Below are positions 1-28,815 of a stretch of 64,000 nucleotides of DNA, in pieces (the stretch's first letter is position 1; the number at the start of each line of letters is the position of its first letter). The notes under the pieces were generated by a model that saw only the letters and a program-made list of their open reading frames with translations, was not told the DNA's origin and did no database searches. Source of the stretch: an uncultured delta proteobacterium (GTDB lineage Bacteria > Desulfobacterota > Binatia > UBA9968); the NCBI GenBank assembly GCA_963804165.1, contig CAWDPO010000043.1, positions 128,001-192,000 of the forward strand, given 5' to 3'. A program made the position numbers and the translations under genes.

Positions 1-309
1 ACTCGCATTGAACTGAAGATATCGCATGATGAATTATCCGAGATGGTCGGAACAACTCGGCCGCGGGTCAGTTTGTTTATGCAGCGGTTTCGTAACCTCG
101 GGTTGATTGAGACCAACCTGGATCGCTTTCTCGTCATCAATGAAAAGAAACTCGCCGATTACTGGCTCGGATCCATAGCTCCCGGGCAGCCTCCCGGGTC
201 TCTTAGCGATTCTTTTCAACCCCGTTCAGTTATTAGACAGAAGGCTCGCTTCCAAGTCAGCCGGCAAGTTAAATCGAATCAATCGGGAGGTAACTTACTA
301 TGGGACTGA
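1..309 (+). CDS. CRP/FNR family transcriptional regulator, C-terminal HTH (5' truncated by window edge)
   Basis: Frame 1 reads TRIELKISHDELSEMVGTTRPRVSLFMQRFRNLGLI, a typical Crp HTH. The true stop may be near 178 if there is an indel. Confidence 0.8.
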   Translation, partial: TRIELKISHDELSEMVGTTRPRVSLFMQRFRNLGLIETNLDRFLVINEKKLADYWLGSIAPGQPPGSLSDSFQPRSVIRQKARFQVSRQVKSNQSGGNLLWD

Positions 310-449
310 TATTGTTGATTGTGTTAATTGTGCTCCTGTTTGGTGGTCTGCCCAACTGGGGTTATCACTCGTATGGTTACGGTCCATCGGGCATCGTCGG
401 GACGATACTAATTATCGTCCTGATTCTGTTCCTGTTGGGCCGAATCTAA
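300..449 (+). CDS. DUF3309-type small membrane protein (49 aa, not in ORF track)
   Basis: GGAGG RBS at 286-290; MGLILLIVLIVLLFGGLPNWGYHSYGYGPSGIVGTILIIVLILFLLGRI*. Confidence 0.85.
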   Translation: MGLILLIVLIVLLFGGLPNWGYHSYGYGPSGIVGTILIIVLILFLLGRI

Positions 450-698
450 CGGCGCTGAGCGCCCAGCGCAGTGAACGGTAATCACGAAAACAGCTTCCTT
501 GTTGTTAGGCAGCAAACATGAGCGGCGATACGAAGATCAAGAGCATGGGAGCCATTCCTCACACGGGCGGAGTTGGGGGACCATCTCCTTGGGCAAGGAG
601 TAGACTATCGTTAGTTTTGCGGCAATTAACCAAGTCTCCTCTTGGACAAAGACATTAACTCGTCGGAAAATAACTCGGTTAAAAAGGGAACCCACCGT

Positions 699-1601
699 AT
701 GAGACAGCTAAAAAGGATTATTGTGGGTCATGATCTGGAAGTCGGCGGAGACGTAGCCCTGCGATCGGCAGTAGTGCTTGCTAATCGGTGTGGCAGCGCG
801 CTTCGGCTGGTGCATGTGGTAGAACCGCTCCACTCCTATCAGAGGCTCTCGCATCCCCTCACTTCTCCCTACACTCTAGAAGAGATCTCACAGAAAACCG
901 GAGTAAGACTGCAGGCGTTAGTGGCAACCCCGGAGCTCGCCCGCCTGCACGTCGAATACGAGGTGCGCAGGGGCAAACGATTTGTTGAACTCATCATTGC
1001 CGCAAGGGCGTGGCAAGCGGACCTGATAGTCGTCGGGGGTTCGTCTCAGACAGACGAACCCATTCTCGGCGGTACAAGTGAGCGGATACTGCGCAAGGCC
1101 CTAGTCCCCGTAATGGTGGCAAAGAAGCCGCTGAGTGCCGAAGCGAAAATCTTTTTGGTCCCAACGGATTTTTCCTCTTCCGCGAGAGAAGCCGCCGAGG
1201 AGACGATCATGCTTGCAAAGTGCTTCGGCGGCCGCGTCATTTTCCTTCACGTTTTGGACTTGTATCCTTCATATACGATTGCATATGCCCATGAGTTGGG
1301 TGTCTCCGTGCCGATTTCACCGCCTGCGCCCGAAGAGATTGAACCTGATTGGGAAGCTTTCCTCTCCGGTTTGCCGTTGGAGAAAGTCGATTGGGAAAAA
1401 AATACTGAAGAAGGTCAAGCAGCCAGTACCATTGTGCATCGAGCGGAGCACATGCAAGCGGATATGATCGTGATCGGCACGCACGGTAGAAGCGGCTTGC
1501 CCCATATGCTCCTAGGCAGCGTGGCCGAAAAGGTGGTGCGTACGGCATCCTGCCCTGTCCTCACCATCAGACCGGAGGCGTTTCAATTTGAACTGCCGTG
1601 A
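699..1601 (+). CDS. Universal stress protein, tandem USP domains
   Basis: Two USP domains; GTHGRSGLPHMLLGSVAEKVVRTASCPVL motif; ATG at 699 preferred over the TTG at 642. Confidence 0.92.
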   Translation: MRQLKRIIVGHDLEVGGDVALRSAVVLANRCGSALRLVHVVEPLHSYQRLSHPLTSPYTLEEISQKTGVRLQALVATPELARLHVEYEVRRGKRFVELIIAARAWQADLIVVGGSSQTDEPILGGTSERILRKALVPVMVAKKPLSAEAKIFLVPTDFSSSAREAAEETIMLAKCFGGRVIFLHVLDLYPSYTIAYAHELGVSVPISPPAPEEIEPDWEAFLSGLPLEKVDWEKNTEEGQAASTIVHRAEHMQADMIVIGTHGRSGLPHMLLGSVAEKVVRTASCPVLTIRPEAFQFELP

Positions 1602-1719
1602 CGAAGTAGAACCCTACTATGTGCGAGAACCGCGTGTTTATTCGTCGGGAATGGCTACCTCTGAGGCCGGGGTTGATAATTTCATTCGTTAGCTGGATTC
1701 ATCGATGAAGGAGTAACTT

Positions 1720-2106
1720 ATGAAAAGCGCAGCGGGCTTGTGGATCGATCACGGCAAGGCTGTGATCGTAATTGTCTCAGACGACGGAGAAGAATCGAAA
1801 CAAATAGAATCAGGCATGGAGAAGCATGTGCGATTTTCCGGCGGTTCTAGATCGGAACAAGGCGGGGGGGAAGACCAACGGGATCGCCAATATACCGGCC
1901 ATCTCAACAGATATTATGATGAGGTGATCGCGCACCTTCGCGACGCAGAGTCCATCCTGCTCTTTGGTCCCGGTGAGGCAAAGGGAGAGCTGGAAAAACG
2001 TCTCGCGAATAAAGGCATTGGTGGACGCATTGTCGGTATCGAAACAGTTGACAAGATGACCGATCGCCAGATTGCGGCAAAAGTTCGACAGCACTTTCGA
2101 AAATAA
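1720..2106 (+). CDS. Stand-alone aeRF1/baeRF middle-domain-like protein (host-attachment/translational machinery fold)
   Basis: AGGAG RBS; GLWIDHGKAVI ... YYDEVIAHLRDAESILLFGPGEAKGEL ... IETVDKMTDRQI pattern; no GGQ. Confidence 0.65.
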   Translation: MKSAAGLWIDHGKAVIVIVSDDGEESKQIESGMEKHVRFSGGSRSEQGGGEDQRDRQYTGHLNRYYDEVIAHLRDAESILLFGPGEAKGELEKRLANKGIGGRIVGIETVDKMTDRQIAAKVRQHFRK

Positions 2107-2489
2107 GCTTGCCAGTTCAAGAATAGGCATGAACCAAACTCCCTTCGGCCTTCTGGTCGAATACGATGGATTCCCTCTTCACGCCACACTTTCCACTGGT
2201 CACTGCAGCGCGCTGACCTTTTTACAATGATCGAATGAGGATCTTCTCGGGCGCTGGAAAAGAGCTCTATAACTCAGCTGAGTCGAAGCCAGTTGTCTCG
2301 TCACTCGCAACGCTAGCTCGTCCGATAAAGGCGTACTGCAAGGGCCCAGGGTCTCTAGCTGGAACTGCCATGCTTGAGTCAGGCATTCACTTGTAATGCT
2401 GTCGCTGAACTTGATAGCTATGCCCCTACGAATCGCTTATATCGAATGGTAAAGATCGAGCGAAGAAAAAAGAAGACGAATAGGACGAT

Positions 2490-3456
2490 ATGCCCGAACA
2501 CTTGAAAAAATCAAAAGTTCCACCGCCGCCAGATCCCTATCATCGTCGCGAACCACTGCCTGAGCAGCGACCAAAGTCGATTGAAGAGGATCCGGATGCA
2601 CAGGAGCGAATCAAAACCATCCTGGAAAGCCCGAGTTATCAGCAGGCTGATGAGGATTTAGATTTTCTCAACCGCTATGATGTGCGCGGCGTACGCCTCC
2701 AGGTCGATTACCTCAAGGCAGAACTCTTGCTTCAACAGCACTCCATCCGACACACGATCGTTGTCTTCGGAGGAACGCGAATTCGAGAGCCCGTGGCCGT
2801 TCAGCGACAAGTCGAAGCGCTACGCGCAGCCCAAGCGGCCGACCCTGCGAATACGGATGTGGCACATCGGCTTGAAATTGCGCAGCGCCTCCTTGCTAAG
2901 AGTCATTATTATGATGTGGCTCGCGAGTTCGGGCGCCTCGTCGGAAACAGCGGGCCGGGCTCCCATAGGCACGATCTGGTGATCATGACCGGCGGCGGTC
3001 CGGGGATCATGGAGGCCGCCAACCGCGGGGCCTATGATGTCGGAGCCAAATCCATCGGTCTGAACATCCGTCTTCCCCGTGAACAAGTATCCGAATCCTT
3101 ACATCACGCCCGAGCTATGCTTCCGCTTTCATTATTTCGCCTTGCGAAAGCTTCATTTCCTACTGCGCGCCAAAGCGTTGGTCGCCTTTCCAGGCGGCTA
3201 TGGCACTCTCGATGAAATGTTTGAAACCCTCACGTTAGTGCAGACCCGCACAATCAAGCCTGTTCCTGTGGTCTTGGTGGGTGAGCGCTACTGGCGTCAG
3301 GCATTCAACGTAGACTTTCTGGTCGATGAAGGTGTCATTGATCCGGAGGATCGGGAATTGTTCTGGTTCGCCGAAACGGCACAGGAGATCTGGGACGGCA
3401 TCCAGCATTGGCACAGGGTCAACGGCGGGTCCTTAGAAACGGCGTCTTCGGAATGA
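2490..3456 (+). CDS. LOG family (TIGR00730-type) nucleotide phosphoribohydrolase, one frameshift near 3080
   Basis: [16 protein letters not shown] in ORF 2490-3215 and [10 protein letters not shown] in ORF 3079-3456. Confidence 0.9.
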
Positions 3457-3735: not shown

Positions 3736-5236
3736 ATGACAAATACGCAAGACAAACAACACCGCGCTATCCTAAAAAGGATCGCCCGTCGGGCGATGCT
3801 TGAAAGGGGGCTTCTTCCCGAATTCTCGCTCCAAGCACGGGGCGAGCTCGACGGAATTCGCGGACCTGCAACGCGAGCTGAAGAATCGACGCATGATCTC
3901 CGAAACCTTATCTGGTGCTCCATAGATAACGATGATTCGCGCGATCTGGACCAGCTTACCGTTGCCGAAGCCATGCCGGGGGGACCGCAAAGATCCTTGT
4001 CGCCATTGCCGATGTGGATGCTGTCGTCAAGAAGCAGTCGGCACTTGACGATCATGCCAGGCAAAACACGACCTCGGTATACACGGCTGCCGAGATATTT
4101 CCGATGCTGCCGGAGAAACTCTCGACCGATCTTACCTCGCTCAACTATGAATCAGACCGCCTCGCCATCGTCATTGAAATGGTCATCGGTGAGGACGGAA
4201 TGCTGCAGGCTTCGGATATCTACACAGCGATGGTCCGAAATCGTGCAAAGCTCGCCTATAACGGTGTGGCTAGCTGGCTGGAAGGTAGTGGCCAGTGCCG
4301 CACGTTGTCGGTAAGGTCGACGGTCTCGACGAAAACCTCCGGCTTCAGGACCGCGTGGCGCAAAAACTGAAGGCTCTCCGGCACGCGCATGCAGCGCTGA
4401 ATCTCGAAACCATCGAAGCGCGCCCTGTGTTTGACGGCGATGAGATCAAGGACTTAGAAGCCGAGAGAAAGAACAGAGCTAAAGAGATTATTGAGGACTT
4501 CATGATATCGGCAAACGGTGTTACCGCACGATACCTCGCCTCCAAGATGTTTCCGTCGCTGCGGCGCGTAGTGCACACACCCAAACGCTGGGACCGGATC
4601 ATCGAGCTCGCCTCGGACCAAGGCTTCACGTTACCCCAGAAGCCCGACTCAAAGGCCCTGGAGCAATTTCTCATATCGGCGAAAGCCGCTGATCCTCTCC
4701 GCTTTCCCGATCTTTCCCTCAGTGTCATCAAGCTGATGGGCGCCGGTGAATACGTCGTCGAACTACCCGGAAGCAGTGCCGCCGGACACTTCGGTCTCGC
4801 GGTCAGAGATTATGCTCATTCCACAGCGCCGAATCGGCGATATCCCGATCTGATCACCCAGCGGTTGCTGAAAGCAGCGATCGCGGGAAGTTCACTGCCC
4901 TATGAGAACGATGAATTGCAGGTGCTAGCAAAGCATTGCACCGAAGAGGAAGACGCAGCGAAAAAAGTCGAACGACAGGTGAGAAAATCTGCGGCAGCAA
5001 TGCTGCTGGAATCACGGATCGGCGAGAGGTTCGATGGCATCGTTACGGGCGCTTCTGACAAAGGCACTTGGGTTCGTCTTCTGCATCCGCCCATCGAAGG
5101 AAAACTTGTGAACGGTTATGAAGGTATGGGCGTCGTGGAGCACGATGTTCAACTTCGACTCCATCAAGACGGCGATGAACTGACGGGAGGTTCGTCAAGA
5201 CAGACAATAACGCTGCTCAGAGCAAACGCTGTGTAG
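3736..5236 (+). CDS. RNB-domain ribonuclease (short RNase II family), frameshifted near 3985 and 4295
   Basis: SIDNDDSRDLDQ catalytic loop; IIEDFMISAN; HFGLAVRDYAHSTAPNRRYPDLITQR. Confidence 0.88.
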
Positions 5237-5327: not shown

Positions 5328-5441
5328 CTGTTAGTAATGTTTGTGCAGCATTACCTGATCGTGAATGTTCCTCACGACTGCTGAACTTGATAACCTGCGT
5401 ATGCGCCGGACCCGCGCCATGACGACCGTGAGGTATGTGGA

Positions 5442-8400
5442 TTGAAATCGTTATTTTCTCAGAACCTATTACGTAAAAACCATTCAGAGGCCATCGCACT
5501 TTCGCAGCTCGAAGAGCCGATTCGGGCTGAACTTTTCAGCGCGAGCGTCTCGAGCAGCACGGCGAAAGCCTTGCTGCGGCTCAGCGCGTCACAACGACAC
5601 CGCGCAAAGGGCGGCCGTTATTGCCGCGCGTGCATCGACAACGGCCGAGTGCTGCTAGAATCATATCGTGCCATCGCCCAGGCGATTCGGCAGGAGTACG
5701 CCATCACACCTGCAGCGGAATGGCTAGTCGACAATTATCACATCGTCGACGAACAGCTGCGCGAGATCCAGGACGACTTGCCACCCGGCTATTATCGGGA
5801 ACTGCCTAAGCTGGCCGAGGGTCCACTCGAGCGGTATCCGCGCGTCTACGGACTGGCCTGGGCATTTGTCGCCCATACCGACAGCCGGTTTGACCCGGAA
5901 ATGCTGCGTCGGTTCGTGCGCTCATACCAACGTGTGCAGCCGCTGACGATCGGCGAGCTCTGGGCGGTAGCCATCACCGTGCGTGTGGTGCTCGTCGAGA
6001 ATCTCCGGCGCCTGGCCCAGCACATCGTGCATGAACGTGCCGCGCGCCAAGAGGCCGACGCCGTAGCCGACCGCCTGCTCGGTCTCAGCGGCCGTCCCAT
6101 CAAGTCTGCGGCGACGGATGCTGCGGCAATTCGAGGGCGGCCCGCTGGCGCCGGCTTTTGCCGTACAGCTTGTTCAGCGGCTGCGCGATCAGGACCCGGT
6201 GATCACGCCGGCGCTCCAGTTGGCTCGAGCAACAGCTAGAGGGTCAGGGCACAACGTCTGATGAGATTGTCCGGGTCGAGCATCAGCGGCAGGCGGCGAT
6301 GAACGTGACCGTGCGCAACGTGATTACCAGCATGCGCCTGATTTCCGCCTTCGATTGGTCGGAATTCTTTGAGAGCGTGAGTCTTGTCGACGCCATACTT
6401 TGGACCGACACGGACTTTGCCGCTCCGGATTTCCGACACGAGATCGTTACCGCCGCGCCATCGAAGAACTCTCTCGCTGCTCACCGCACGATGAGCGGGA
6501 AGTTGCCCGGCGGGCGGTTTCTCACGCGAAAAGCTTTCGCGACAAAGTGCAAGAAGGAACTGACCCAAGCGCGGACCGCCGCGGCGATCCCGGCTATTAT
6601 CTCATCTCGAAAGGGCGTGCGCATCTTCGAGCCCGAACTCAGCTTTCGCGTTCCCCTCAGGAGCCTGGCTTAGTCGCCTCTTTGTGGCTCACGCGGCGTC
6701 ACGCTACCTTGGAACCATCGCGCTTGTCACTGGCCTCTTCCTCACTTTGTTCCTGTTCACTTCCGGCGCAGCGGAAGTTGGGTGGAGTAGGTCTGGTGCT
6801 ACTCGGGCTTCTCGCTCTCATCCCGGCCTCGGAACTGGTGATCGCAATGGTGAATCGCGAAGTCATGGAAATCCTCGGGCCACGGGCGATGCCCCGGCTT
6901 GCGCTCCGTGACGGAGTGCCGGCGGATTTGCGGACGTTGGTAGTCGTGCCGACTCTCCTGACCGGTCCCGCCCAGATTGCGGAGCAGATCGAGCAGCTCG
7001 AAGTGCACTACCTGGCGAATCCCGATGGCGATCTTCGTTTCGCGCTCCTTTCCGACTGGATAGACGCCCCCCAGGAAACCATGCCGGGAGACGACGAACT
7101 GCTGGCTGCGACGGTTGCGGGGATCGCGCAGCTGAACCGAAGCCATGGACTCGCCCCGGATGGGGGCGAGCGATTTTTTCTCTTCCACCGCCGGCGCGGC
7201 TGGAACGAGAGCGAGCAAAAGTGGATCGGCTGGGAACGCAAACGCGGAAAGCTCCATGAACTGAATCGTGTGTTGCGTGGCGCCACAGACACGACCTTCG
7301 TACCAACGGGCGGTGGAGCACCTATCGCGCCTTCTGGTGTCCGCTACGTCATCACACTGGATGCCGACACGCGGTTGCCACGGGGGGCCGCTTGCCGATT
7401 GGTGGGCACGATGGCGCATCCCCTTCACCGGCCTCGGTTTGACCCTCGCATCGGCCGAGTCGTTGAGGGCTACGCATTGCTTCAACCGCGCGTCACACCG
7501 ACCCTCCCGACCGATCGTGAGGGTTCTCTTTTCCAGAGGATCTCCTCGGGGCCGGCTGGCATCGACCCGTACGCCTCTGCCGTCTCCGACGTCTATCAGG
7601 ATCTTTTCGGCGAAGGTTCTTACATCGGCAAAGGCATTTATGATGTCGATGCATTCGAAGCCGCGCTCGCCGAAAGGGTGCCGGAGAATGCCTTATTAAG
7701 TCATGATCTTTTTGAAGGGATCTTTGCGCGGGCGGGACTGGTCACCGATATCGAGTTCTTCGAGGAGTTTCCCGCGCACTACGAGGTTGCCGTGGTGCGC
7801 CAGCATCGCTGGGCGCGCGGTGATTGGCAGTTGCTGCCGTGGATCATAGGGCACGCACCGGACATGGGGCGCGGTCCGGCCCGATGCCACGATTCCGCTG
7901 ATCGGCCGCTGGAAAATGCTCGATAACCTCAGGCGCACGCTGTCTGCCCCGGCTGCCTTTTTGGCCTTGATGGCCGGTTGGACGCTGCCGCTCCCTTCGC
8001 CTGTGATCTGGACGATGTTCGTCCTCGCAACCATCGCCGTTCCGCCGCTTATGCCCGTCCTCTTGACTGGGCTGATCCCGTATCGCCGCGGGATTTCAAA
8101 ACGCAGCCATGCGCGGGCGGTCGCCACGGATCTGGTGCTTGCCGCCTCGCATGTCGCACTCACGGTCACATTACTTGCCGACCAGGCATGGTTGATGACC
8201 GACGCGATCGTCCGGACTCTGTCACGCGTCTATGTGACACGCAGAAAGCTCCTTGAGTGGGTGACGGCAGCGCAGGCGAAGGCCGGTTTTGATCTCAGGC
8301 TTAGCAGCTTCTATCGCCGCATGGGCGGCACGGTAGTCATCGCTGCCGCGGTAGCGATCCTTGTTGCGTCCCAGCCGCCGGAAGTCCGGTGGATTGCGGT

Positions 8401-15107: not shown

Positions 15108-15171
15108 CTTGTAAAAAGTTCCGCCGCTGCGGCAAAAAACACTCCCTATTACCAGATTACCAGGAAGCTCA

Positions 15172-19432: not shown

Positions 19433-19461
19433 ATCGAGCTCCATAGTCGTCGCCCGCACCG

Positions 19462-19959
19462 TTAATGGGCGGCCTTGGGTTTCACCGTCAGCACCGGACA
19501 AGGCGCGTGACGTACGATCTTTTCGGCGACGTTGCCGATCACCAGACGCTTGAGGCCGGTTCGGCCATGGGTCGCCAAGACGACGAGATCGGTCCGCAAA
19601 TCTTCGGTTGCATCGAGGATCGCCTCAAACGGATCGCCTCTGCGGACGTGGTAACGGACTTTGCCGTAGTGTTGCGCGACATCGTGACAAAACTGTTTGA
19701 GCAAGACTTCCGAGTGTTCCTCCGTGGCCCGCAAGATCTTGGCGCGCCTTTGTGGCTCGCCGGCATAGACATCGATGAGCGCCGGATCCGTCTGCGTGAT
19801 TTCGCTCATATAGACTTCATCGAAGGGATTATGGATTACGTGGAGAATGTCTAGCGTGCCTTCGCTGGCTTCGGCAACCTTCACCGCCAGCTTCAACGCC
19901 TCCAAAGAAAATCCCGAAAGATCCACTGGGCAGAATATTCGTTTGAAATCGAGACTCAT
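19462..19959 (-). CDS. Universal stress protein (single domain)
   Basis: IFCPVDLS; ATHGRTGLKRLVIGNVAEKIVRHAPCPVL. Confidence 0.92.
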   Translation of the reverse strand: MSLDFKRIFCPVDLSGFSLEALKLAVKVAEASEGTLDILHVIHNPFDEVYMSEITQTDPALIDVYAGEPQRRAKILRATEEHSEVLLKQFCHDVAQHYGKVRYHVRRGDPFEAILDATEDLRTDLVVLATHGRTGLKRLVIGNVAEKIVRHAPCPVLTVKPKAAH

Positions 19960-21807: not shown

Positions 21808-21848
21808 CGCGTTGGCGATCTCCGTCAATGACCTATGAACACCAAATG

Positions 21849-22213
21849 TTAGAGCGCCACGCCGACGCCCACTATGACGAAAGTCCCGTCCAGCACCGGG
21901 TGCGAACTGTCCAAGAGTCCCCGATCCATCGCCACCTGACAAATGCCGAATCGATCGATCCATAAAGTTCGATGGAGTCAACGTCCCATTTGGTCCGTGC
22001 ATCGTTATAAAAGATCAGGATTCCCGCTGCTCCGTCTTCATCAATAAACATGGTGTAATCGATCACAGTCATGGGGTTTCGATCGGGAATTGTTGGCGGC
22101 AGGATGACTCGCTCGTGTCGAAGATTTTCTCCGACTCTGAGCTGCTCGGGCATCGCTTTATCGCTTAAGACCAATGCTGCGATCAAAACCAGGAAGCCGC
22201 AGAGTTTCTTCAT
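21849..22213 (-). CDS. Hypothetical exported protein (frameshift/deletion near 21960)
   Basis: Signal peptide MKKLCGFLVLIAALVLS; continues in another frame as WIDRFGICQVAMDRGLLD...VGVAL* ending at 21849. Confidence 0.55.
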
Positions 22214-22241
22214 TTTCCATCACCACCGTGATAACAAACAG

Positions 22242-22256
22242 GCAAACTATGTGCCC
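22242..22256 (-). promoter_or_regulatory. Sigma-54 promoter (-24/-12)
   Basis: Minus strand GGGCACATAGTTTGC, about 30 nt upstream of the ATG at 22213. Confidence 0.75.
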
Positions 22257-22428
22257 AGCGATGGAGCCCAGGCACAGTTAGAATCTCAATGAATGCGGCT
22301 GATGATTCGAATCAAACGCTCGGAATTTTCTCAGAGATGAAAATCTCTAGGACGTTTTCCTACTAAGAATGCGAAGGAAACTTGCGCTCGGCTCAGCAAA
22401 AGTGGGGGATTCATTAGGATACAACTCG

Positions 22429-22443
22429 CGGCACTCCAATTGC
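22429..22443 (+). promoter_or_regulatory. Sigma-54 promoter (-24/-12)
   Basis: CGGCACTCCAATTGC, about 60 nt upstream of the ATG at 22503. Confidence 0.72.
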
Positions 22444-22502
22444 GTCTGCAAAAGGCAAATTGACAACATTTCCACACGGGTAACCTTAGGAAAGGTCTAC
22501 GC

Positions 22503-23576
22503 ATGCGTACGTTCAGCTACGATAGGTCCCGGAACTCGGTACTATGGGGATTGGTTTTGGCAGCCGGAGACGGTAGAAGACTGCAAAGCTATATCCAGAA
22601 GCTTCTCGGCGAGAATCTGCCTAAGCAATACGTTAATTTTGTCGGCCGGCGTTCGATGTTGGAGCACACTATCCACCGCGCTAAGAAGCTCATCTCAGCG
22701 CGCCAGGTCGTTACTATAGTAAGCCGCCAGCACCTGCAATTCACCACGGTCCAGCGCCAGCTTGCCCGCCTTTCGCCAAAAAACGTGATCGTTCAGCCCG
22801 AAAATCGAGAAACGCTTCCTGGAATCTTGCTGCCGTTGATGCATCTCTATAAACGCTGTTCGGAATCCATCGTCGCGTTATTTCCATCGGATCATTTCAT
22901 CTTGGAAGAAGACCGTTTCATGGATTATGTGGCGCAGGCCGCCCGTGCGGTCGCGCACGATCCCTCCCGCCTCGTCCTGCTCGCCATCGAGCCGCAGGAT
23001 CCTGAAACCGAGTATGGCTACGTTGTTCCGCGTGCAAATGACGGCCACTTAAGCATTTGGGGGACGCGTAGCGCCGTGCGTTTTGTCGAGAAGCCTAATG
23101 CCGCGATGGCCCACGGGCTTATTGAGTCAGGGGCCTTGTGGAACACCATGATTATGGTTTTTAAGGTTCGAACGCTCCTGCAGCTCATAGAGAAGCTTTG
23201 CCCGGCCGTGTATCTCGACTTCAGACGCATTCTTCCGGCGCTCGGCAGCGCGAATGAAACGGAAGCTGTCAATGAAATTTATCGGACACTCGAACCCATG
23301 AATTTTTCAAAGGTATTCTTAGAACGGCTTGCTGCGGTCAGTCCCGAGCGGATATCGGTACTGCCGGTGCTCCAGGTATTCTGGAGCGACTGGGGCTCGC
23401 CGGAACGGTTGTTACGGACGCAGGAGCTACTGACGGCTTCACGTGTGGGGCAATTCAAGTACGTCGTGCAACGTCATGAATATCGGGCACTGGAAGCAAA
23501 TCAAGGCGACCAGGCAGCCCACGATGGAGTGATAGTCCAGCGGGCGTGTCATTCACGCGCGGGAGAATGTCTATGA
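22503..23576 (+). CDS. Sugar-phosphate nucleotidyltransferase (mannose-1-phosphate guanylyltransferase-like, divergent)
   Basis: LVLAAGDGRRL...PKQY; FPSDHFI; ETEYGYV; FVEKP; WSDWGSP. Confidence 0.85.
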   Translation: MRTFSYDRSRNSVLWGLVLAAGDGRRLQSYIQKLLGENLPKQYVNFVGRRSMLEHTIHRAKKLISARQVVTIVSRQHLQFTTVQRQLARLSPKNVIVQPENRETLPGILLPLMHLYKRCSESIVALFPSDHFILEEDRFMDYVAQAARAVAHDPSRLVLLAIEPQDPETEYGYVVPRANDGHLSIWGTRSAVRFVEKPNAAMAHGLIESGALWNTMIMVFKVRTLLQLIEKLCPAVYLDFRRILPALGSANETEAVNEIYRTLEPMNFSKVFLERLAAVSPERISVLPVLQVFWSDWGSPERLLRTQELLTASRVGQFKYVVQRHEYRALEANQGDQAAHDGVIVQRACHSRAGECL

Positions 23577-24007
23577 GAACGATATCGGTGCGCAAACGGC
23601 TCGGATTGATGACGCTTGTATTCAGCGGCGGTCTTCTGGCACTCCTACCTGTTGCATCGCCGCAAAACGTCCGCGCGCGCGAAGAGGCGGCGCGTATAGT
23701 GACTGTTGAGAAGATCGCCATCACGGACGATGTAGTTTCGGGCGAGGTGCTCAATCGCTCTCCGAATGTACTTCGTGATATCCAACTTTTGATTCGCTAC
23801 ACCTGGTTGTGGGACAACGAAACGAAACCCGGTAAGGACGATCCCAGTACATCCATCTACTACGTTTTGCCCAAAGAGATTCCCCCCGGTGGGCGCTTGC
23901 CCTTCACGTACAAACCGTCGCCTCCGTTACCCAAGAGGGTGGGTGGGCGCTTTGAAACTTCGGCCTCTATCGCCGGGTTTGCCGAAGTGATTCAGCAAAT
24001 TCGGTAG
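23573..24007 (+). CDS. Hypothetical exported protein
   Basis: ATGA overlap with the upstream stop; N-terminal hydrophobic signal; beta-rich mature part. Confidence 0.6.
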   Translation: MRTISVRKRLGLMTLVFSGGLLALLPVASPQNVRAREEAARIVTVEKIAITDDVVSGEVLNRSPNVLRDIQLLIRYTWLWDNETKPGKDDPSTSIYYVLPKEIPPGGRLPFTYKPSPPLPKRVGGRFETSASIAGFAEVIQQIR

Positions 24008-24025: not shown

Positions 24026-25756
24026 TCACTCCGTCTCTGGTCGAATCTGGTAATGATCTTGGATGTGCGCCAGAATCTCCGCTCGATCGGGATTGACTCC
24101 CGCCGGCATGGTACGCTCGAGTTTACGCAGTCCCTTCGCTAGCTGTTGGTCGCCAATGACTTCGCCTACCCAGCGGGAAAAGTCACCCGCAAGCAAATGG
24201 TGGCGCAGCGAAAAAAATGGCAAGGTCTGCACTGCCTGGTAGAATTCCATCATATTATGGGCGGCGAGTGCCTTACCCGCATTGACGAAGCGAAATGCCT
24301 TGTCATCGGGCAAACGCGTGTCCGCGTATTTGCGGGCGTGATGTGAGTGCCCCGTCACCCGTTTCACGGGAGTGAACACTTCCCAAGGGGCTTTCACCGA
24401 ATTCACCATTAGGAGTCCGGCATGCGGCGGTTCCAGGCGATCGAGTGCATCGTGCACGGGTATCTGCAGATGATCATGCGCCTGTAGGATCTTGGTGACG
24501 AAGTAACGCTCTTCCTCGACTTTAGTGCTGGTAATGACGTGTGCGCCGATGGTGCCATAGACTCCGCTCGCCAATAAGCTAGGCCGATACGTCACGAAAC
24601 AAAAACTTCCGCTGGAAGTATTAAGATACTTCAAGCAAGGACTCTGTGCCTGAAAGAAGTAATGCGCCTCATCGATCACAATCCAGTGCGGGCAACCCGT
24701 GCTTTGCCGCATCTCCTGCAGCGCCCCGAGTAACTGATCGACGTAATGCAGTTGATCCTGAGGCGCCCGGGATGAGAGCACCAATATGATACTTAGGGCT
24801 TCGTTGCTAAGGAGCCTTGCTGCCGCTGCCGGGGAGAGCAAAGCTAGTTCAACTCCGAAGGTCACGACCCTGGATCGCTCTCCCATCTGAGCATAATCAC
24901 CTTCGGGATCGATGACGCAAACGCGGTAGCCTTGTTCGATGAGTTGCTCGCCAAGAAGACCCGCGATCCAGGATTTTCCCGAGCGGGGGTCACCGCTGAC
25001 GACAACGTTGGTACCGGAAGTGGGAATCGTGACCGGCTGTCCTTCCGAGTTCTTGCCGAGCAAGACGGTGCGACGAGCAGGAGTAGGCACGGCACCGCTG
25101 TGCTCCAACAAATTTCGGATATAAGCAGCGACGCCGGCTCCGCCCGGCTGCGACAACCGATCATCGGCGAGCGCCGTTACTGCGGGGATGGAACCGCGCG
25201 CGGCCACTCCGATTTCCGCATTCACTAGCATGGGTATATCGTTTTCCGCATCGCCGAAAGCGATCAAATTTCGTTCCGATCGTCCCAGCTCAGCCAGCGC
25301 TCGACGAATTCCGACCGCCTTATTGATTCCGCTAGGGAGAACCATCAAGGCAGCTCGGTTGAAGACCAATTGGCCGTCAATGCCGAACCGACGGATGAGC
25401 GCAAGAAGCTTATCGGCGTGCTGTTCCCAGGTGCCAACGATTACCGCCCCTGTATGAAACGGCACACCCAGCGCTCGTAGCTCGCCGAGAAAGTGCTCGG
25501 ATGGCGGTTCGCCAATTTGAATTGTCCGCTCCAGCCCGCAAAGATAAATTAGGGCTCCATTTTCCGCGACGACGGCATCGAAAGGCGATAACTCGTCGCA
25601 CGCGCGTTGGACATCCTCCAAGACTCGTCCCGTGACTAATAAGGTCACGAATCCTTGGGCCCGCGCTGCCGCCAATGCGGCATACAATTCGGGGGCAGGA
25701 TGTCCGTCAGTGGCTCCGGTGCCGTCGAAGTCACATGCGATGACACGGCAATACAT
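24026..25756 (-). CDS. HAD-IIB phosphatase fused to a HerA/DUF87-like P-loop domain and a DUF5752-like C-terminus
   Basis: ACDFDGT and FGDAEND (HAD); GDPRSGKS, IDPEGDY, WIVIDEAH (P-loop); AHNMMEF...HHL..GDFSRWVGEVIGD. Confidence 0.8.
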   Translation of the reverse strand: MYCRVIACDFDGTGATDGHPAPELYAALAAARAQGFVTLLVTGRVLEDVQRACDELSPFDAVVAENGALIYLCGLERTIQIGEPPSEHFLGELRALGVPFHTGAVIVGTWEQHADKLLALIRRFGIDGQLVFNRAALMVLPSGINKAVGIRRALAELGRSERNLIAFGDAENDIPMLVNAEIGVAARGSIPAVTALADDRLSQPGGAGVAAYIRNLLEHSGAVPTPARRTVLLGKNSEGQPVTIPTSGTNVVVSGDPRSGKSWIAGLLGEQLIEQGYRVCVIDPEGDYAQMGERSRVVTFGVELALLSPAAAARLLSNEALSIILVLSSRAPQDQLHYVDQLLGALQEMRQSTGCPHWIVIDEAHYFFQAQSPCLKYLNTSSGSFCFVTYRPSLLASGVYGTIGAHVITSTKVEEERYFVTKILQAHDHLQIPVHDALDRLEPPHAGLLMVNSVKAPWEVFTPVKRVTGHSHHARKYADTRLPDDKAFRFVNAGKALAAHNMMEFYQAVQTLPFFSLRHHLLAGDFSRWVGEVIGDQQLAKGLRKLERTMPAGVNPDRAEILAHIQDHYQIRPETE

Positions 25757-25782: not shown

Positions 25783-26268
25783 TTAGGCAGCCTTCCTTCT
25801 GCGCGGTTCCACCAGTCGAACAATCTGGGGCTTCGCAAATACAGTGAAATCTCTGTAGCGCAACCTCACCGTCTGGGCATGATTCCCGGCGTTGAAGTAG
25901 ATGTATTGATCCTTCTCCAGCTCGGGATCGACGTAGACTTTGAGGCCAAAAAGATTTCCAAATGGCGGCATCGCGCCGATTTCACAGCCGGGAAAGCGCG
26001 AGATAAATTCATCTTCTGTTGCCAATCGCACCCGGGTGGCACCCAAGCTCGACCGTGCCATATCCAAGCTGATCTTATGGCTGCCCCTAATCACGCCCAT
26101 GACCAGCGTGCCGTCGACAACAAGCATCACAACCTTGGCGATTTCGTTTCCGGACACGTGTTGCTGGGCGGCGATCTCCTGCGCAGTATACGCAAGCGGG
26201 TGGTTGAAAACCTCGTACGACACTTTCCCTTCATCGAGCATTTCCTTTAGCTTCGTCAAAATCGGCAT
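25783..26268 (-). CDS. YbaK/EbsC/ProX family aminoacyl-tRNA deacylase-like protein
   Basis: HPLAYTAQEIA; AKVVM; FPGCEIGAMPPFG; YFNAGNH; AAGGAGG RBS. Confidence 0.9.
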   Translation of the reverse strand: MPILTKLKEMLDEGKVSYEVFNHPLAYTAQEIAAQQHVSGNEIAKVVMLVVDGTLVMGVIRGSHKISLDMARSSLGATRVRLATEDEFISRFPGCEIGAMPPFGNLFGLKVYVDPELEKDQYIYFNAGNHAQTVRLRYRDFTVFAKPQIVRLVEPRRRKAA

Positions 26269-26332
26269 AACTTCCTCCTTTCGGCTGCAATGCACTAATT
26301 AAATTAGATTTAATCTCTGTTGAATATTGGTG

Positions 26333-26347
26333 GCAAGAACCGTGCCT
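26333..26347 (-). promoter_or_regulatory. Sigma-54 promoter (-24/-12) for ybaK-HAD
   Basis: Minus strand AGGCACGGTTCTTGC, 65 nt upstream of the ATG at 26268. Confidence 0.8.
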
Positions 26348-26543
26348 TAGATTCGGGCAAGACGTTTTCTATTTCCTGCACGATATAGGCTCTCCACAGA
26401 TGCACCCTCATGATTGAGGCGACCTCAGTTCCCACCGCTGATAATTCTCCTGGTTCGTTTTCTCACGCGTGCGAGCCGAGTGGCCCAATCAGATAAATTC
26501 TCAGTTTATTCGCGGGATTTCTCGCTGCGAAAATCGTTCACCG

Positions 26544-26558
26544 TGGCACATCTCTTGC
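26544..26558 (+). promoter_or_regulatory. Sigma-54 promoter (-24/-12) for the HPF gene
   Basis: TGGCACATCTCTTGC, 54 nt upstream of the ATG at 26612. Confidence 0.85.
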
Positions 26559-26611
26559 CGCTCTTTGTGGATGAATGCGGGCGCACAATCAGCAAAGATG
26601 GAGGAAGACAT

Positions 26612-27079
26612 ATGAAAATTCCCTTGAAGATCACCTTTCGTGACATGCCCCCTTCGAAAGCGATCGAGAACAATATTCGCGCGAAAGCCAGCAAGCTGGA
26701 TGTATTTTACGACGCCATCATGAGCTGTCGGGTCATCGTCGAGGCGCCGCACCGCCACCATCATAAGGGCAAGGCCTATGTAGTACGTATCGACCTGACT
26801 GTCCCGGGAGGCGAACTGGTGGTCAATCGTGAGCCCAAGCGTCTAGTGGCCGCCCCGGTGGAACATATAGAAGAATTAGAAAAGACATGGGCCGAAAGTC
26901 ATGGGCCGAGCAAGCATGCGGCACATGAGGATGCCTATGTCGCTATTCGCGATGCCTTCAACGCGGCGGCGCGTAAGTTACAGGACTATGCGCGGCGGCA
27001 GCTGGCAAGACTAAGGTCCATGAATCCACGCGGCTGCGTCACCCTAAACGGTCCTCTCCGAATTCTTGAGACGATTTGA
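26612..27079 (+). CDS. HPF/RaiA family ribosome hibernation protein
   Basis: GGAGG RBS; MKIPLKITFRDMPPSKAIE...CRVIVEAPHRHHHKG...AHEDAYVAIRDAFNAAARKLQDY. Confidence 0.88.
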   Translation: MKIPLKITFRDMPPSKAIENNIRAKASKLDVFYDAIMSCRVIVEAPHRHHHKGKAYVVRIDLTVPGGELVVNREPKRLVAAPVEHIEELEKTWAESHGPSKHAAHEDAYVAIRDAFNAAARKLQDYARRQLARLRSMNPRGCVTLNGPLRILETI

Positions 27080-27165: not shown

Positions 27166-27531
27166 TCATGCCGCACGCCCGTGCACGCCGTGCCGGTGTT
27201 TAGTCTTTTCCTCTGCGTGTTTGTCTTTCGTTTCGCGCAGTCCGCGACGAACGTACTCTGGGTCGAGGCCGAGGAGATCGCACACATTGTCGAAGGAAAA
27301 GATCCAGTCGTTACCCCTGTGCATAATCCACTTCTCGGCAGTACGGAATCGTTCTTTACCCTTCGGATCGTGCGCCCGACTGTATTTGCGATACTCATGC
27401 GCCGCGTCTTCAAGAATCGCAGCGACTAGCGCTCGTTCGGGTTCGAGGTGCTCGCTGCGGCGAAACGTATCCAAGTACTGCTGCGCCATTGAAGTGTCGC
27501 CGTTCATGATCGTAATAATGTTTTCCGCCAT
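27166..27531 (-). CDS. Conserved hypothetical protein (EPERALVAAILEDA / WIFSFDNVCDLLGLDP type)
   Basis: ORF with AGGAAGG RBS-like sequence and its own sigma-54 motif. Confidence 0.7.
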   Translation of the reverse strand: MAENIITIMNGDTSMAQQYLDTFRRSEHLEPERALVAAILEDAAHEYRKYSRAHDPKGKERFRTAEKWIMHRGNDWIFSFDNVCDLLGLDPEYVRRGLRETKDKHAEEKTKHRHGVHGRAA

Positions 27532-27585
27532 TGCGCTCACCTTCCTTTCTACTTTGAGTTTCGAATTCGTCCCTAAATAACTCAC

Positions 27586-27600
27586 GCAACCGATATGCCA
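27586..27600 (-). promoter_or_regulatory. Sigma-54 promoter (-24/-12)
   Basis: Minus strand TGGCATATCGGTTGC, 55 nt upstream of the ATG at 27531. Confidence 0.8.
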
Positions 27601-27660
27601 CTAGGTTACGCGGAGCTGATGCCGTGTTCTTCCCAGCCTTGCAAGAATTTGCCCGGCGCC

Positions 27661-27676
27661 TTCTCAGCGCTGAGAA
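27661..27676. promoter_or_regulatory. Perfect 16-bp palindrome between divergent sigma-54 promoters, candidate enhancer (UAS)
   Basis: TTCTCAGCGCTGAGAA. Confidence 0.5.
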
Positions 27677-27724
27677 ATGGCCATGACTAAAAGCCGAAAA
27701 GTCGAAGTAAATCGAGCGTATCAA

Positions 27725-27739
27725 TGGCATAGCCGTTGC
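27725..27739 (+). promoter_or_regulatory. Sigma-54 promoter (-24/-12) for hsp20
   Basis: TGGCATAGCCGTTGC, 72 nt upstream of the ATG at 27811. Confidence 0.8.
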
Positions 27740-27810
27740 GTTTGTTAACTATCGAATCGTTTAAATAGTTCACGCCACTCGATGGAATTGGTTTTCGGAG
27801 CATTGAGCCC

Positions 27811-28239
27811 ATGGCAAAGAAACAAAATGATTTGATCTCATTTCCCATGCATCTGCCGCGAGAAGTGGAACGCCTGTTTGATGAAATCATTCACCGTCCT
27901 TGGGGTTCTTGCCGAGAGATACGCGGCTGGAGTCCCTCCATTGATCTTTACGAAACCGCTGAAGCGTTCATTCTCGAAGCGGACCTTCCGGGGGTTAATT
28001 CCGACGATGTCACGGTGGAGATCGAAAATAGCGATTTGGTCTTACAGGGCTGGCGCTCCCTGGAAAAGAAACACGATGATGGCCAGTTTCACACCATGGA
28101 GCGCTCATCAGGGAACTTTGTCCGGCGTATCAAACTTCCCGAATCGGTCGACAAAAACGCTATTAACGCCGAGTTCCACGACGGCGTATTGCGGGTCATC
28201 ATTCCGAAAGCCAAAGAACGGAGAGAAGAAGCAAAATGA
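27811..28239 (+). CDS. Hsp20/alpha-crystallin small heat-shock protein
   Basis: WSPSIDLYET; ADLPGV; ERSSGNFVRRIKLPESVD; FHDGVLRVIIPK. Confidence 0.93.
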   Translation: MAKKQNDLISFPMHLPREVERLFDEIIHRPWGSCREIRGWSPSIDLYETAEAFILEADLPGVNSDDVTVEIENSDLVLQGWRSLEKKHDDGQFHTMERSSGNFVRRIKLPESVDKNAINAEFHDGVLRVIIPKAKERREEAK

Positions 28240-28519
28240 TCGGCAACACTGAATTAACATCCGCCGAACCTCACAAGGAATCGGTTTGCCACGCCCGCGA
28301 GCAAGCTCGCCGGCGATTTCACATCGACGCGCGATTTGACCCGCGCGACCGAATTCATCGGTCAGGAGCGCGCCCTGGCAGCATTGGATTTGGGCTTGGG
28401 CATCGGCGGCAACGGCTACAATATTTTCGTTTCCGGTCTGACCGGCGCCGAGAAGTTGGAAACCGTGCACCGTTGGGTCGCTGAGAGGGCATCCTCCAGC
28501 GCCACGCCTGGCGACTGGG
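28236..28519 (+). pseudogene. N-terminal remnant of a Lon-like (AAA_32/LonC-type) protease
   Basis: ATGA coupling to hsp20; FIGQERALAALDLGLGI...GYNIFVSGLTG...PGDW, then homology stops. Confidence 0.75.
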
Positions 28520-28529
28520 GGACAGTTGG

Positions 28530-28697
28530 GCCGACTGGTACGTCCACGAAACCACTCGCATCGACGACGCACTGACCCGTATCGAAGGCCGATACGGTGT
28601 TTGCCTCGGTTGCCACGAGCCGATCGAGCCGCATCGTCTCGAATCGACTGTCCGGTTTTTGTCCGGTCAATTGAGAAAAAACGTGAAAGTTTGTTAA
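28530..28697 (+). pseudogene. C-terminal remnant of a DksA/TraR C4 zinc-finger protein (not in ORF track)
   Basis: ADWYVHETTRIDDALTRIEGRYGVCLGCHEPIEPHRLES; no start codon and second CxxC degraded. Confidence 0.7.
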
Positions 28698-28721
28698 ACT
28701 TCGCCTCAGCGGTATCTAGGA

Positions 28722-28734
28722 AATTAAAGACTTA
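28722..28734 (+). promoter_or_regulatory. IHF-like site beside the att-like tRNA fragment
   Basis: AATTAAAGACTTA vs WATCAANNNNTTR, one mismatch. Confidence 0.4.
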
Positions 28735-28766
28735 GGTAGATTGTGGTAGGTGGTGAAAGGTTTGTT

Positions 28767-28815
28767 CCGGTCTCTCACGTCGGGAACACGGGTTCGATTC
28801 CCGTTGGGACCACCA
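28767..28815 (+). tRNA. 3' half of tRNA-Glu(CTC) only; probable att duplication (island boundary)
   Basis: CCGGT-CTCTCAC-GTCGG anticodon arm, ACGGG-TTCGATT-CCCGT T-arm, TGGGACC-A-CCA end; no upstream GGTCCCA acceptor strand or D-arm. Confidence 0.8.

Follow-up and report, generated by a model that had tools for sequence, protein, structure and literature searches.

Gene content of the flagged region

Uncultured Binatia are common in soils, where they must survive swings in oxygen and water. We analysed a 64-kb stretch of DNA (the window; C43:128,001-192,000) from one such genome (G000), the first 28,815 bp of which had been flagged in an initial annotation as a candidate mobile dormancy and ribosome-hibernation kit. 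This flagged stretch proved to be the right-hand end of a stress/dormancy-type supercluster of about 120 kb (about C43:39-157 kb), a coherent gene neighbourhood that is conserved within the genus. C43 is a 436-kb contig of an assembly with 46 contigs and a completeness score of 81%. The long open reading frames (ORFs) of the window were scanned with Pfam, and gene order was mapped by tblastn in relatives, five of which, with long contigs, were examined in detail (G014, G015, G019, G023 and G044). Twelve of the 13 gene families named initially were recovered, by Pfam, by structure match in the case of the aeRF1-like protein, or by orthologue alignment in the case of gene remnants. The features, in window coordinates, are as follows.

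1-306 (+), CRP/FNR-family regulator, C-terminal part (Pfam HTH_Crp_2, E 2.7e-11)
300-449 (+), DUF3309 small membrane protein (Pfam, E 7.4e-18)
642-1601 (+), tandem-domain USP (Pfam Usp, E 1.9e-49, 2 stretches)
1720-2106 (+), 128-aa one-domain protein of predicted aeRF1/Pelota fold, standalone core-domain baeRF-1 type
2490-3456 (+), LOG/SLOG (lysine-decarboxylase-like) gene in two frames (Pfam LDcluster4, Lysine_decarbox)
3736-5236 (+), short RNase II (RNB plus C-terminal S1) in three frame pieces (Pfam, orthologue alignment)
about 5440-14319 (+), cyclic beta-1,2-glucan synthase (cgs) with GH94, supersandwich and glycoamylase domains, in at least 6 frame pieces
14477-15370 (+), VTT/DedA-family membrane protein (Pfam VTT_dom, E 5.5e-15)
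15172-16284 (+), 370-aa PF27233 (MJ0711_N) protein with a C-terminal hydrophobic helix (precomputed family labels of homologues)
16307-17551 (+), MgtC plus DUF4010 membrane protein (Pfam)
17574-18437, 18566-19501 and 19462-19959 (-), three USP genes, two tandem-domain and one single-domain (Pfam)
19996-22002 (-), AMP-binding acyl-CoA ligase-like gene (Pfam)
21872-22213 (-), 113-aa small ORF preceding the ligase
22503-24007 (+), NTP transferase and a 153-aa ORF, orf153 (Pfam)
24026-25756 (-), HAD phosphatase plus AAA protein (Pfam)
25783-26295 (-), YbaK-type aminoacyl-tRNA editing protein (tRNA_edit; Pfam)
26612-27079 (+), accessory HPF paralogue, S30AE domain with an insertion (Pfam)
27166-27534 (-), orf139, a 122-139-aa protein of a family commonest in Candidatus Binatota
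27811-28239 (+), Hsp20/alpha-crystallin (Pfam, E 5.4e-22)
28,297-28,560 (+), LonC-like protease remnant, aligning with residues 31-118 of an intact 818-aa G014 protein
28,539-28,646 (+), DksA/TraR remnant, aligning with residues 72-108 of an intact 130-aa G014 protein
28767-28815 (+), 3' 49 nt of tRNA-Glu(CTC), ending in CCA; an att-like repeat and synteny breakpoint

The list exceeds the initial one by the DUF3309, VTT/DedA, MgtC/DUF4010, NTP transferase and HAD plus AAA genes and two further ORFs. The four USP genes of the flagged stretch account for 7 Pfam domain matches. The CRP-family gene begins outside the window, at C43:127,476, and encodes 277 aa; pairs of CRP and DUF3309 genes are multi-copy in the genus, giving many DNA matches at 77-90% in relatives. 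The pieces of RNase II together span residues 54-520 of the 544-aa G014 orthologue.

The family that was not recovered is the RMD1-like one, assigned initially to the 370-aa protein at 15172-16284. The local Pfam gave no match of any kind for it at E up to 10, and all 120 of its listed homologues carry PF27233 (MJ0711_N), an uncharacterised family, with an Atlas score of 0.99 to MJ0711_N clusters; an RMD1/DUF155 identity was not confirmed. Each of these 120 homologues is named hypothetical protein, and some come from Candidatus Binatia. In relatives the MJ0711_N protein always adjoins cgs.

The HPF scored 48.9 bits against PF02482 (cut-off 23.7), and its best PDB sequence match was 9t0z, a hibernation promoting factor (E 2e-24). 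No second HPF domain, as in the C-terminal dimerisation domain of long HPF, was found with Pfam at E up to 10, and its extra length consists of the insertion and a tail. Since a canonical short HPF sits right behind rpoN on contig C38, the window copy is an extra paralogue.

A supercluster conserved within the genus

The flagged region had been presented as a self-contained kit of 29 kb, which did not hold, as the window supplies the last part of the supercluster and, within it, the promoter pairs described below were detected only at 22-28 kb. The stretch C43:69.9-148 kb contains 24 of the 46 USP domain matches of the genome. In the 20 kb upstream of the window we found an NtrC-type activator, a multi-PAS histidine kinase, a zinc-ribbon protein, three CBS-pair proteins, a hemerythrin and a ferritin-like protein, as well as, read by eye, a BON lipoprotein, a YtxH-like protein and small membrane proteins. 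Further upstream are 1) OsmC, a phosphorylase-like protein, a CBS/CoA-binding protein, two P-type ATPases, GAPDH and more CBS pairs, and 2) a tandem USP run, pyruvate:ferredoxin oxidoreductase, glutamate dehydrogenase, cardiolipin synthase and a CDF transporter.

A DNA search of the genus gave matches in all 31 genomes, including G005, which supports no claim here. In G014 the order is RNase II, cgs, MJ0711_N, USP, USP, followed at a distance by NTP transferase, YbaK and HPF and then by orf139 and Hsp20; in G044 the genes for MJ0711_N, cgs, USP, USP, YbaK and HPF are directly adjacent, and G019 and G023 have orders similar to these. The block is colinear with the end of C2 plus C1:6.7-159 kb in G014, with C12:319-406 kb in G015, with C13:385-427 kb in G044, and with G019, and the cluster proteins are 52-86% identical to their kin. 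The three minus-strand USP genes form the downstream part of an operon led by the small ORF and the ligase, with synteny in G014, G044, G019 and G023. The left 20 kb (CRP, USP, aeRF1-like, LOG, RNase II, cgs and MgtC genes) is likewise syntenic in relatives. Co-clustering of the families elsewhere, the test that had been set beforehand, was thus borne out within the genus, with gene order kept in five other species; the aeRF1-like gene is an exception.

Two further observations concern this neighbourhood. A 420-aa PriCT_1 (primase C-terminal) protein is encoded between the kinase and the CBS genes at C43:118,703-119,965 (-); because it occupies the same place in G014 and G015, it is a stable cluster member and no recent mobile insertion. 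In addition, a second, smaller paralogous stress cluster is located in G000 at C40:201-217 kb, with its own sigma-54 activator, YbaK, orf153, NTP transferase and USPs; its HPF and MJ0711_N proteins are 83% and 87% identical, respectively, to the window copies.

Sigma-54-like sites paired with a palindrome

Three divergent control regions were located in the right-hand part of the flagged stretch:

22241-22256 (-), sigma-54-like site; 22328-22343, palindrome; 22429-22444 (+), sigma-54-like site (counterparts in G014, G019 and G023)
26332-26347 (-), sigma-54-like site; 26429-26444 and 26460-26475, palindromes; 26544-26559 (+), sigma-54 site
27585-27600 (-), sigma-54-like site; 27661-27676, perfect palindrome TTCTCAGCGCTGAGAA; 27725-27740 (+), sigma-54-like site

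All six sigma-54-like sites are intergenic and each points at the next gene, so that they precede HPF, YbaK, Hsp20, orf139, the operon of small ORF, ligase and USPs, and the NTP transferase. Alignment of the spacer upstream of HPF revealed that the promoter core CTGGCACATCTCTTGCCG is identical over 18 nt in G000, G014 and G044, while the rest of the spacer barely aligns apart from a dyad, TTC[T/G]CA-N4-TG[A/C]GAA. YbaK and HPF flank a common divergent control region in each of the two paralogous G000 clusters, and they do so in G014 and G044 as well.

Both patterns were then applied to the whole genome with up to 2 mismatches each, a pair being scored where a sigma-54-like site had a palindrome 30-220 bp upstream; palindromes equally far downstream and four control palindromes served for comparison. 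There were 29 pairings upstream versus 7 downstream, and the control palindromes gave 2-9. C43 holds 23 of the 29 pairings, corresponding to 19 of 25 distinct sites, and 17 are within C43:39,103-155,725, which makes up 1.6% of the genome. Pairs recur in G044, G014, G019, G023 and G015 before HPF, YbaK, the USP operon, NTP transferase, orf139 and DksA, and in these relatives the distances between palindrome and promoter bunch near 76 and 97 bp, that is, two helical turns apart. A scan of the window with the strict sigma-54 consensus gave 2 sites versus 1.9 expected, the sites becoming informative once orientation and palindrome are added.

A genome-wide enumeration of 5-mer palindromes was set aside, as it was dominated by a MITE-like repeat unrelated to the finding. 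This MITE/REP-like repeat of about 100 bp, with two hairpins CCYCTTT-N3-AAAGRGG, has 118 matches in the genome and none in the window; the nearest copy is at C43:103,424.

A candidate oxygen-responsive switch

Besides rpoN on C38, the genome has 34 Sigma54_activat matches, of which a single one is on C43, inside the supercluster. It belongs to an NtrC-type activator with Response_reg, Sigma54_activat and HTH_8 domains (C43:114,490-115,842), next to which lies the gene of a cytoplasmic histidine kinase (C43:115,985-118,366) whose last PAS domain is of the FixL haem type; the pair is situated 12 kb upstream of the window. Residues 446-571 of the kinase match the FixL haem-PAS at E 6e-29 (1DP6, 6.2e-29). 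The kinase keeps, as TEHDGYI, the His of the FixL motif RSRHDSYI, and also the Arg of IGRIV. In FixL this His is the proximal haem histidine.

Control by sigma-54/FNR rather than by DosR had been one element of the initial annotation. Sigma-54 control agrees with the GG-N10-GC sites before genes, with their conservation in relatives and with the presence of rpoN and an activator, and it is thus the predicted mode. Control by FNR found no support. The FNR box has the consensus TTGAT-N4-ATCAA, and the Fe-S centre of FNR needs an N-terminal cysteine cluster. At one mismatch, 6 FNR boxes were found in the 64 kb versus 2.2 expected (2 of 100 shuffles reach 6), which we do not regard as enrichment; one lies in the control region at 22.0-22.5 kb, one inside the CRP frame, and four inside frames or outside the flagged region. 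The 277-aa CRP-family protein has Cys at positions 48, 75 and 90 only, without the N-terminal cluster. Low oxygen or energy limitation as the trigger, by analogy with the mycobacterial DosR regulon, appears reasonable in view of the haem-PAS kinase and the NtrC-type activator 12 kb upstream.

On these grounds the region is a coherent, probably oxygen-responsive sigma-54 stress supercluster, and an oxygen-responsive two-component pair acting via sigma-54 would be the most economical reading of the paired promoters and dyads, the rpoN gene, the sole activator of C43 and the FixL-type PAS. With moderate confidence we propose a chromosomal stress-survival supercluster in which the FixL-like kinase and the NtrC-type activator drive sigma-54 promoters on falling oxygen. 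The kinase would sense the fall and phosphorylate the adjacent regulator, which in its phosphorylated form would bind the palindromes about 55-130 bp upstream of sigma-54 promoters; this activator is taken as the binder because of that position, the dyad symmetry and its being the sole activator on the contig. Many operons would then be switched on jointly, in the window those of 1) the small ORF, ligase and three USPs, 2) NTP transferase and orf153, 3) YbaK and the HAD/AAA protein, 4) HPF, 5) the 122-aa protein and 6) Hsp20. Their products may slow and protect the cell, with HPF parking ribosomes, Hsp20 holding unfolded proteins and USP and CBS proteins gauging nucleotides, and the P-type ATPases, pyruvate:ferredoxin oxidoreductase, GAPDH and glycogen phosphorylase encoded upstream may keep up ions and a minimal energy flow. 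The gene families, the architecture of promoters and palindromes with its conservation, and the crowding of these features on C43 are observed; the regulator that binds the palindrome, the oxygen signal and each of these physiological roles are inferred.

Several points weigh against this proposal. The palindrome by itself is not enriched genome-wide (277 matches versus 86-378 for the controls), and the sigma-54 and palindrome patterns, at the mismatches allowed, are loose. No pair was detected in window 1-22,000, and for two thirds of the flagged region synteny is therefore the only tie to the regulon; nor was the Hsp20 promoter pair detected in G014. The aeRF1-like gene was found in 3 of 24 other genomes of the genus, as partial matches only, and is therefore not a core member of the cluster. 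Haem binding and oxygen sensing by the kinase are read from the alignment, and the palindrome is assigned to this activator by proximity in a neighbourhood where CRP-family paralogues are numerous too.

Broken frames and a deletion

Several genes of the left part are split over frames, of which cgs is the most conspicuous. Seventeen small indels within the gene separate cgs from its intact G044 orthologue, whose open frame spans 2971 aa. Sixteen involve a single base and one involves two; most are insertions, and none falls in a homopolymer. The DNA identity to G044 is 98% in cgs (window 5,365-14,375) and about 70% in the flanking genes, and this could reflect recent exchange or assembly mixing. 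Substitutions relative to G044 are distributed over codon positions 1, 2 and 3 as 24, 26 and 106 (100 synonymous, 56 not), a bias that is the signature of a gene under selection.

Near-identical cgs sequences were present in contigs of four independent soil studies, for which 12 indel places were listed. Eleven of these coincide with sites mapped against G044, and the twelfth is 3 bases from one; at all but one of the 12 places the G044 state appears in contigs of at least 3 of the 4 runs, the exception being 13,370, which is seen in one run only. The four public runs cover mainly cgs and hardly its flanks; what they establish is therefore confined to the lack of these indels in near-identical cgs and does not extend to the state of the copy of G000 itself or to its habitat. 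Near-identical cgs sequence was also seen in soil and rhizosphere runs of 14 studies, and the RNA run X20 contained 14% of the sampled words. G000 has a second, intact cgs copy at C40:135,202-144,060, which is 83% identical and has a frame of 2953 aa.

Broken frames are not confined to the flagged region. In the backbone at 36,300-41,850, four genes, one of them coding for a DHH-family protein, are each read in several frame pieces (three to six for each of the first three), and their G044 orthologues are intact, with 324, 592, 310 and 542 aa; these split genes point to local patches of assembly indel errors. Because backbone genes are broken in the same way, and also in view of the completeness of 81% despite 46 contigs, the frameshifts of LOG, RNase II and cgs are most likely assembly indel errors and not gene decay. 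Coverage by ORF length, as a measure of frameshifts, was not decisive.

The Lon and DksA pieces are of another kind. Their matches are 12 bp apart in G000 and about 2.4 kb apart in G015, and the two are the remnants left by a real deletion of about 2.4 kb.

The tRNA-Glu junction and mobility

The flagged stretch ends, at 28,815, with the CCA end of the tRNA-Glu fragment. A tRNA scan and an Rfam scan of the window gave no tRNA genes and no Rfam matches, respectively, and the fragment was revealed only by a 49-bp match across species. The intact counterpart is a tRNA-Gln/tRNA-Glu pair on C41, 6.2 kb from the contig end, beside which are a 141-aa integrase arm-binding fragment (Arm-DNA-bind_3, E 9e-23), an IS91 transposase and a fragment of the integrase SAM-like type. 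In G015 the site is empty (C2:340,189-340,341): tRNA-Gln and tRNA-Glu are followed by 176 bp and by the MFS gene that follows the fragment in G000, and homology between the two genomes ends exactly at the tRNA end on both sides. In G014 the same site holds a different insert of about 66 kb (C30:100,275-100,427 and 166,825). To the right of the fragment, G000 continues with the backbone genes for TGT, CoaBC, pseudouridine synthase and MlaA, which are syntenic in relatives, on contigs apart from the stress clusters. The stress block of G000 therefore abuts a hot-spot insertion or lies inside it.

The tRNA-Gln/tRNA-Glu pair beside the MFS/TGT backbone is itself an insertion hot spot in the genus, being empty in G015 and filled in G014 and G000. 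Between the tRNA-Glu fragment and the MFS gene, at 28,900-29,771, lies a gene for an N-acetylmuramidase with a peptidoglycan-binding domain, which, as G015 and G014 lack it there, may be the leftover of another insertion.

The block had been described as mobile and island-borne, and one can imagine a large integrative island at tRNA-Glu(CTC) by which the stress genes travel between bacteria as a unit. The att-like fragment, the integrase fragments and IS91 transposase beside the intact pair, the empty and the alternatively filled site, the 98% identity of cgs amid neighbours at about 70%, and the aeRF1-like family, which is 57-80% identical across many phyla, are all in line with this. As in tRNA-targeted islands with tyrosine integrases, there is a direct repeat of the 3' end of the tRNA, an integrase fragment by the intact tRNA, an empty site and an alternative insert. 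However, unlike in such islands, the integrase is fragmentary and no conjugation genes were seen; the two ends are on different contigs (C41 and C43), and the element would exceed 160 kb; the composition is ordinary, with GC of 0.52-0.58 versus 0.557 for the genome, cgs excepted; and the DNA identity of 66-86% resembles the 70-86% of the backbone. Moreover, the supercluster is colinear in the five long-contig relatives, in which it is unlinked to tRNA-Glu. The right flank of the cluster in G014 and G015 gave scattered contig matches relative to G000, which allow no conclusion on the junction and fit a rearrangement-prone one equally well. The repeat and the empty site speak for an insertion, the integrase is a fragment only, and the position of the stress genes elsewhere in 5 of 5 relatives argues against their recent acquisition as island cargo; we regard the island as an unlikely explanation of the block.

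A one-domain relative of aeRF1 and its neighbours

The 128-aa protein encoded at 1720-2106 fell below the curated cut-off of every Pfam baeRF model, the best being baeRF_family10 with 12.9 bits versus 27.1 (E 0.14). An AlphaFold model, built on 50 sequences, had a pLDDT of 85.3. Foldseek matched this model to eRF1, aRF1, Pelota, Dom34 and Balon chains at probability 1.0, with a best E of 1.6e-6 and TMq up to about 0.65; there were 43 PDB matches at E <= 0.001, with Rv2629 and Msmeg1130 among the top ranks, and the isolated M domain of eRF1 (2hst) was matched as well (TMt 0.50). As judged from the model, the protein shares the RNase H-like central (M) domain fold of the aeRF1/Pelota/Balon superfamily. 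It is too short for the N-terminal decoding-site and C-terminal factor-binding domains of the three-domain Balon/aeRF1 proteins. The GGQ motif is not present in the 50-sequence alignment, in which the conserved motif is GPGEAK, loop equivalence not having been checked residue by residue. The protein has at least 8000 homologues, the top 120 of which are at least 80% identical, and it matches 2057 cluster representatives (50% identity), of which the listed ones mostly have about 125-150 aa, longer forms not having been searched for.

Published work provides a context for such a protein. Three baeRF-1 families keep the core domain alone, and baeRF-1 genes are often neighbours of HPF (Burroughs and Aravind, PMC6514570); Balon genes are found in stress operons with RaiA, Hsp20, OsmC and OsmY (PMC10901736). 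Like baeRF-1/Balon (PDB 8V9K, 8V9L and 8RD8), the present protein has the RNase H-like core fold, as predicted, and its gene is placed among stress genes; unlike them, it has 128 aa, no N- or C-terminal domain, no GGQ and scores below the Pfam baeRF cut-offs, and its commonest neighbours are RNase II and P-type ATPases. The terms RNase II and RNB have 0 occurrences in the main text of PMC6514570, to which, supplements aside, this count applies.

These neighbours emerged from 80 aeRF1-anchored loci of many phyla, searched over +-10 kb with hidden Markov models and phmmer. Among the immediate neighbours (144 ORFs at 77 loci, Pfam), RNB with RNase_II_C_S1 occurred 11 times, P-type ATPase 10, USP 2 and CBS 2, and RNB occurred 5 times among the second neighbours. 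Within +-10 kb the numbers of loci were RNB 23, P-type ATPase 20, USP 9, Hsp20 5, CBS 5, BON 5 and HPF 4. For RNB, 22 of the 26 ORF matches were within 2.5 kb of the 128-aa gene, usually 17-100 bp upstream on the same strand and mostly in Chloroflexota; the link with P-type ATPase covers more phyla. A P-type cation ATPase directly adjoins the gene on the same strand in Verrucomicrobia, Beta- and Gammaproteobacteria, Acidobacteriota, Bacteroidota, Ignavibacteria, Chloroflexota and one cyanobacterium. VIT1 (5 loci) and Fe/Mn superoxide dismutase (3 loci) are further recurrent neighbours. The LOG, YbaK, MJ0711_N, MgtC and orf139 proteins of the window had no phmmer matches at E 1e-5 in the 80 loci, by a single-sequence search that is insensitive.

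From the side of HPF, a survey of 151 genomes of a phylum sample found the window subtype in 12. Outside the genus, none of 11 loci has YbaK beside this subtype, and in one of the 11 the HPF is followed by USP domains. A possible HPF-USP fusion was observed in the same class (G156:C1:2,394,680-2,397,895), where an HPF domain and then two USP domains lie in one frame of 611 aa.

With USP, Hsp20 and HPF at so few of the 80 loci, a module of aeRF1-like protein, HPF, USP and Hsp20 that spans phyla is not borne out. The ribosome kit of the initial annotation is thus an arrangement at the level of the genus rather than a conserved module; the more general idea of an aeRF1 relative amid stress genes stands, and it has been published before.

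A narrower possibility is a dedicated ribosome module in which the accessory HPF, the one-domain aeRF1 relative, YbaK and RNase II act on idle ribosomes and tRNA, the rest being bystanders. The predicted fold of the 128-aa protein, the published links between baeRF-1 and HPF and between Balon and both RaiA and Hsp20, the closeness of RNB to the 128-aa gene in so many loci, and the control region shared by YbaK and HPF would suit it. Yet the HPF and YbaK counts just given argue against such a module, the RNB-linked loci, mostly from Chloroflexota, are not independent, the mini-protein lacks both flanking domains and GGQ, its gene is 24 kb from HPF in the window with no pair detected before it, and P-type ATPase, at 20 of 80 loci, has nothing to do with ribosomes. 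We consider the module doubtful.

That unrelated stress genes and decayed insertions came together here by chance, with no control in common, is highly improbable: the truncated Lon and DksA, the insertion hot spot at the border, the many broken frames and the lack of a regulatory motif found in the left 20 kb could be cited for it, but the region is the end of a USP-rich supercluster with shared promoter/palindrome pairs, gene order and promoter/palindrome architecture are conserved (the order in five species), and the broken frames in backbone genes too indicate assembly errors rather than decay.

Comparison with known systems

The supercluster under a FixL-like kinase and an NtrC-type activator, which we prefer, has several relatives in print. 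By content and layout the closest are lxa and DosR, and by wiring NmpR.

The lxa locus of Burkholderia cenocepacia J2315 comprises 50 genes in 50 kb, with six USPs (PMC3721108). Like the present cluster, it is a large co-regulated multi-operon block with many USPs, alpha-crystallin, BON, a cation ATPase and fermentation-type enzymes, in which one motif is repeated intergenically (at 17 points in lxa), the composition is ordinary and genomic islands are adjacent. The features that mark a block of the lxa or DosR type were all found here, namely a multi-operon block, several USPs, a small heat-shock protein, a cation ATPase and one shared motif. The differences are that lxa uses an FNR/Anr-like TGA-N6-TCA motif (PMC3721108), whereas the present block is about 120 kb long, with sigma-54 sites, the palindrome and an NtrC-type activator as its predicted control; that it has an accessory HPF, YbaK, mini-baeRF1 and glucan synthase; and that its induction by low oxygen is a predicted one.

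The DosR/DevR regulon of mycobacteria is likewise a hypoxia-type programme (PMC3721108, PMC10901736). Its members include several USPs, an alpha-crystallin, a cation ATPase, the HPF-family protein Rv0079 (RaiA), the aeRF1-family protein Rv2629 (Balon) and the CBS protein Hrp1. It differs in that DosR is of the NarL/LuxR type and acts at sigma-70 promoters, versus an NtrC-type activator at predicted sigma-54 promoters here, and in that Balon has three domains and the aeRF1 relative here one.

The NmpR regulon of Myxococcus xanthus (NmpRSTU; PMC11841059) shares with the present cluster an NtrC-like sigma-54 activator, oxygen limitation as the signal (putative here), a haem sensor kinase (predicted here), an inverted-repeat enhancer with a GCA...TGC core upstream of sigma-54 sites, and a CBS protein, USP, P-type ATPase and hemerythrin among its members. 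In contrast, the NmpR operator is GCGCA-N5-TGCGC, with N5 versus N4 here, its 7 promoters and 23 genes are scattered, and its protoglobin kinase works in a phosphorelay, versus the FixL-type sensor here. As in FixL of rhizobia (PDB 1DP6, 1D06 and 1XJ4, among others), the haem-type PAS of our kinase directly precedes the HisKA and ATPase domains; unlike FixL, which has FixJ as its partner, the kinase is paired with an NtrC-type sigma-54 activator, has three or four further N-terminal PAS domains, and its haem site is a predicted one.

A literature search on sigma-54-driven USP/Hsp20 hypoxia clusters and on dormancy in Binatota or Binatia, with supplements not covered, gave nothing relevant beyond the papers on lxa, DosR, NmpR and Balon/baeRF-1. 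In the light of these, and of the published stress-operon context of Balon/baeRF-1, calling the region an undescribed system was too strong. What sets the present case apart, as read from the sequence, is the putative N4 operator, the FixL-type sensor, the size, and the addition of the accessory HPF, YbaK, the one-domain aeRF1 relative and the glucan synthase.

Implications

The bolder form of the proposal, which we put forward tentatively and think improbable as a whole, is that one haem kinase and one activator drive a dormancy programme of about 120 kb and at least 17 promoters that includes a second ribosome-parking layer, in which the 128-aa protein with RNase II, HPF and YbaK would silence and then clear or recycle idle ribosomes and tRNA, the block perhaps being relocated or spreading via the tRNA-Glu hot spot. 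The recurrence of the one-domain aeRF1 relative beside RNase II or a P-type ATPase offers a new lead to ribosome and RNA quality control in starved bacteria. For the Binatia, the cluster would mean that the gene repertoire of the DosR regulon and of lxa has been assembled again under predicted sigma-54 control, and it offers a candidate switch, composed of a sensor kinase, an activator, an operator and about 17 promoters, that may be used to read dormancy in soil metatranscriptomes.

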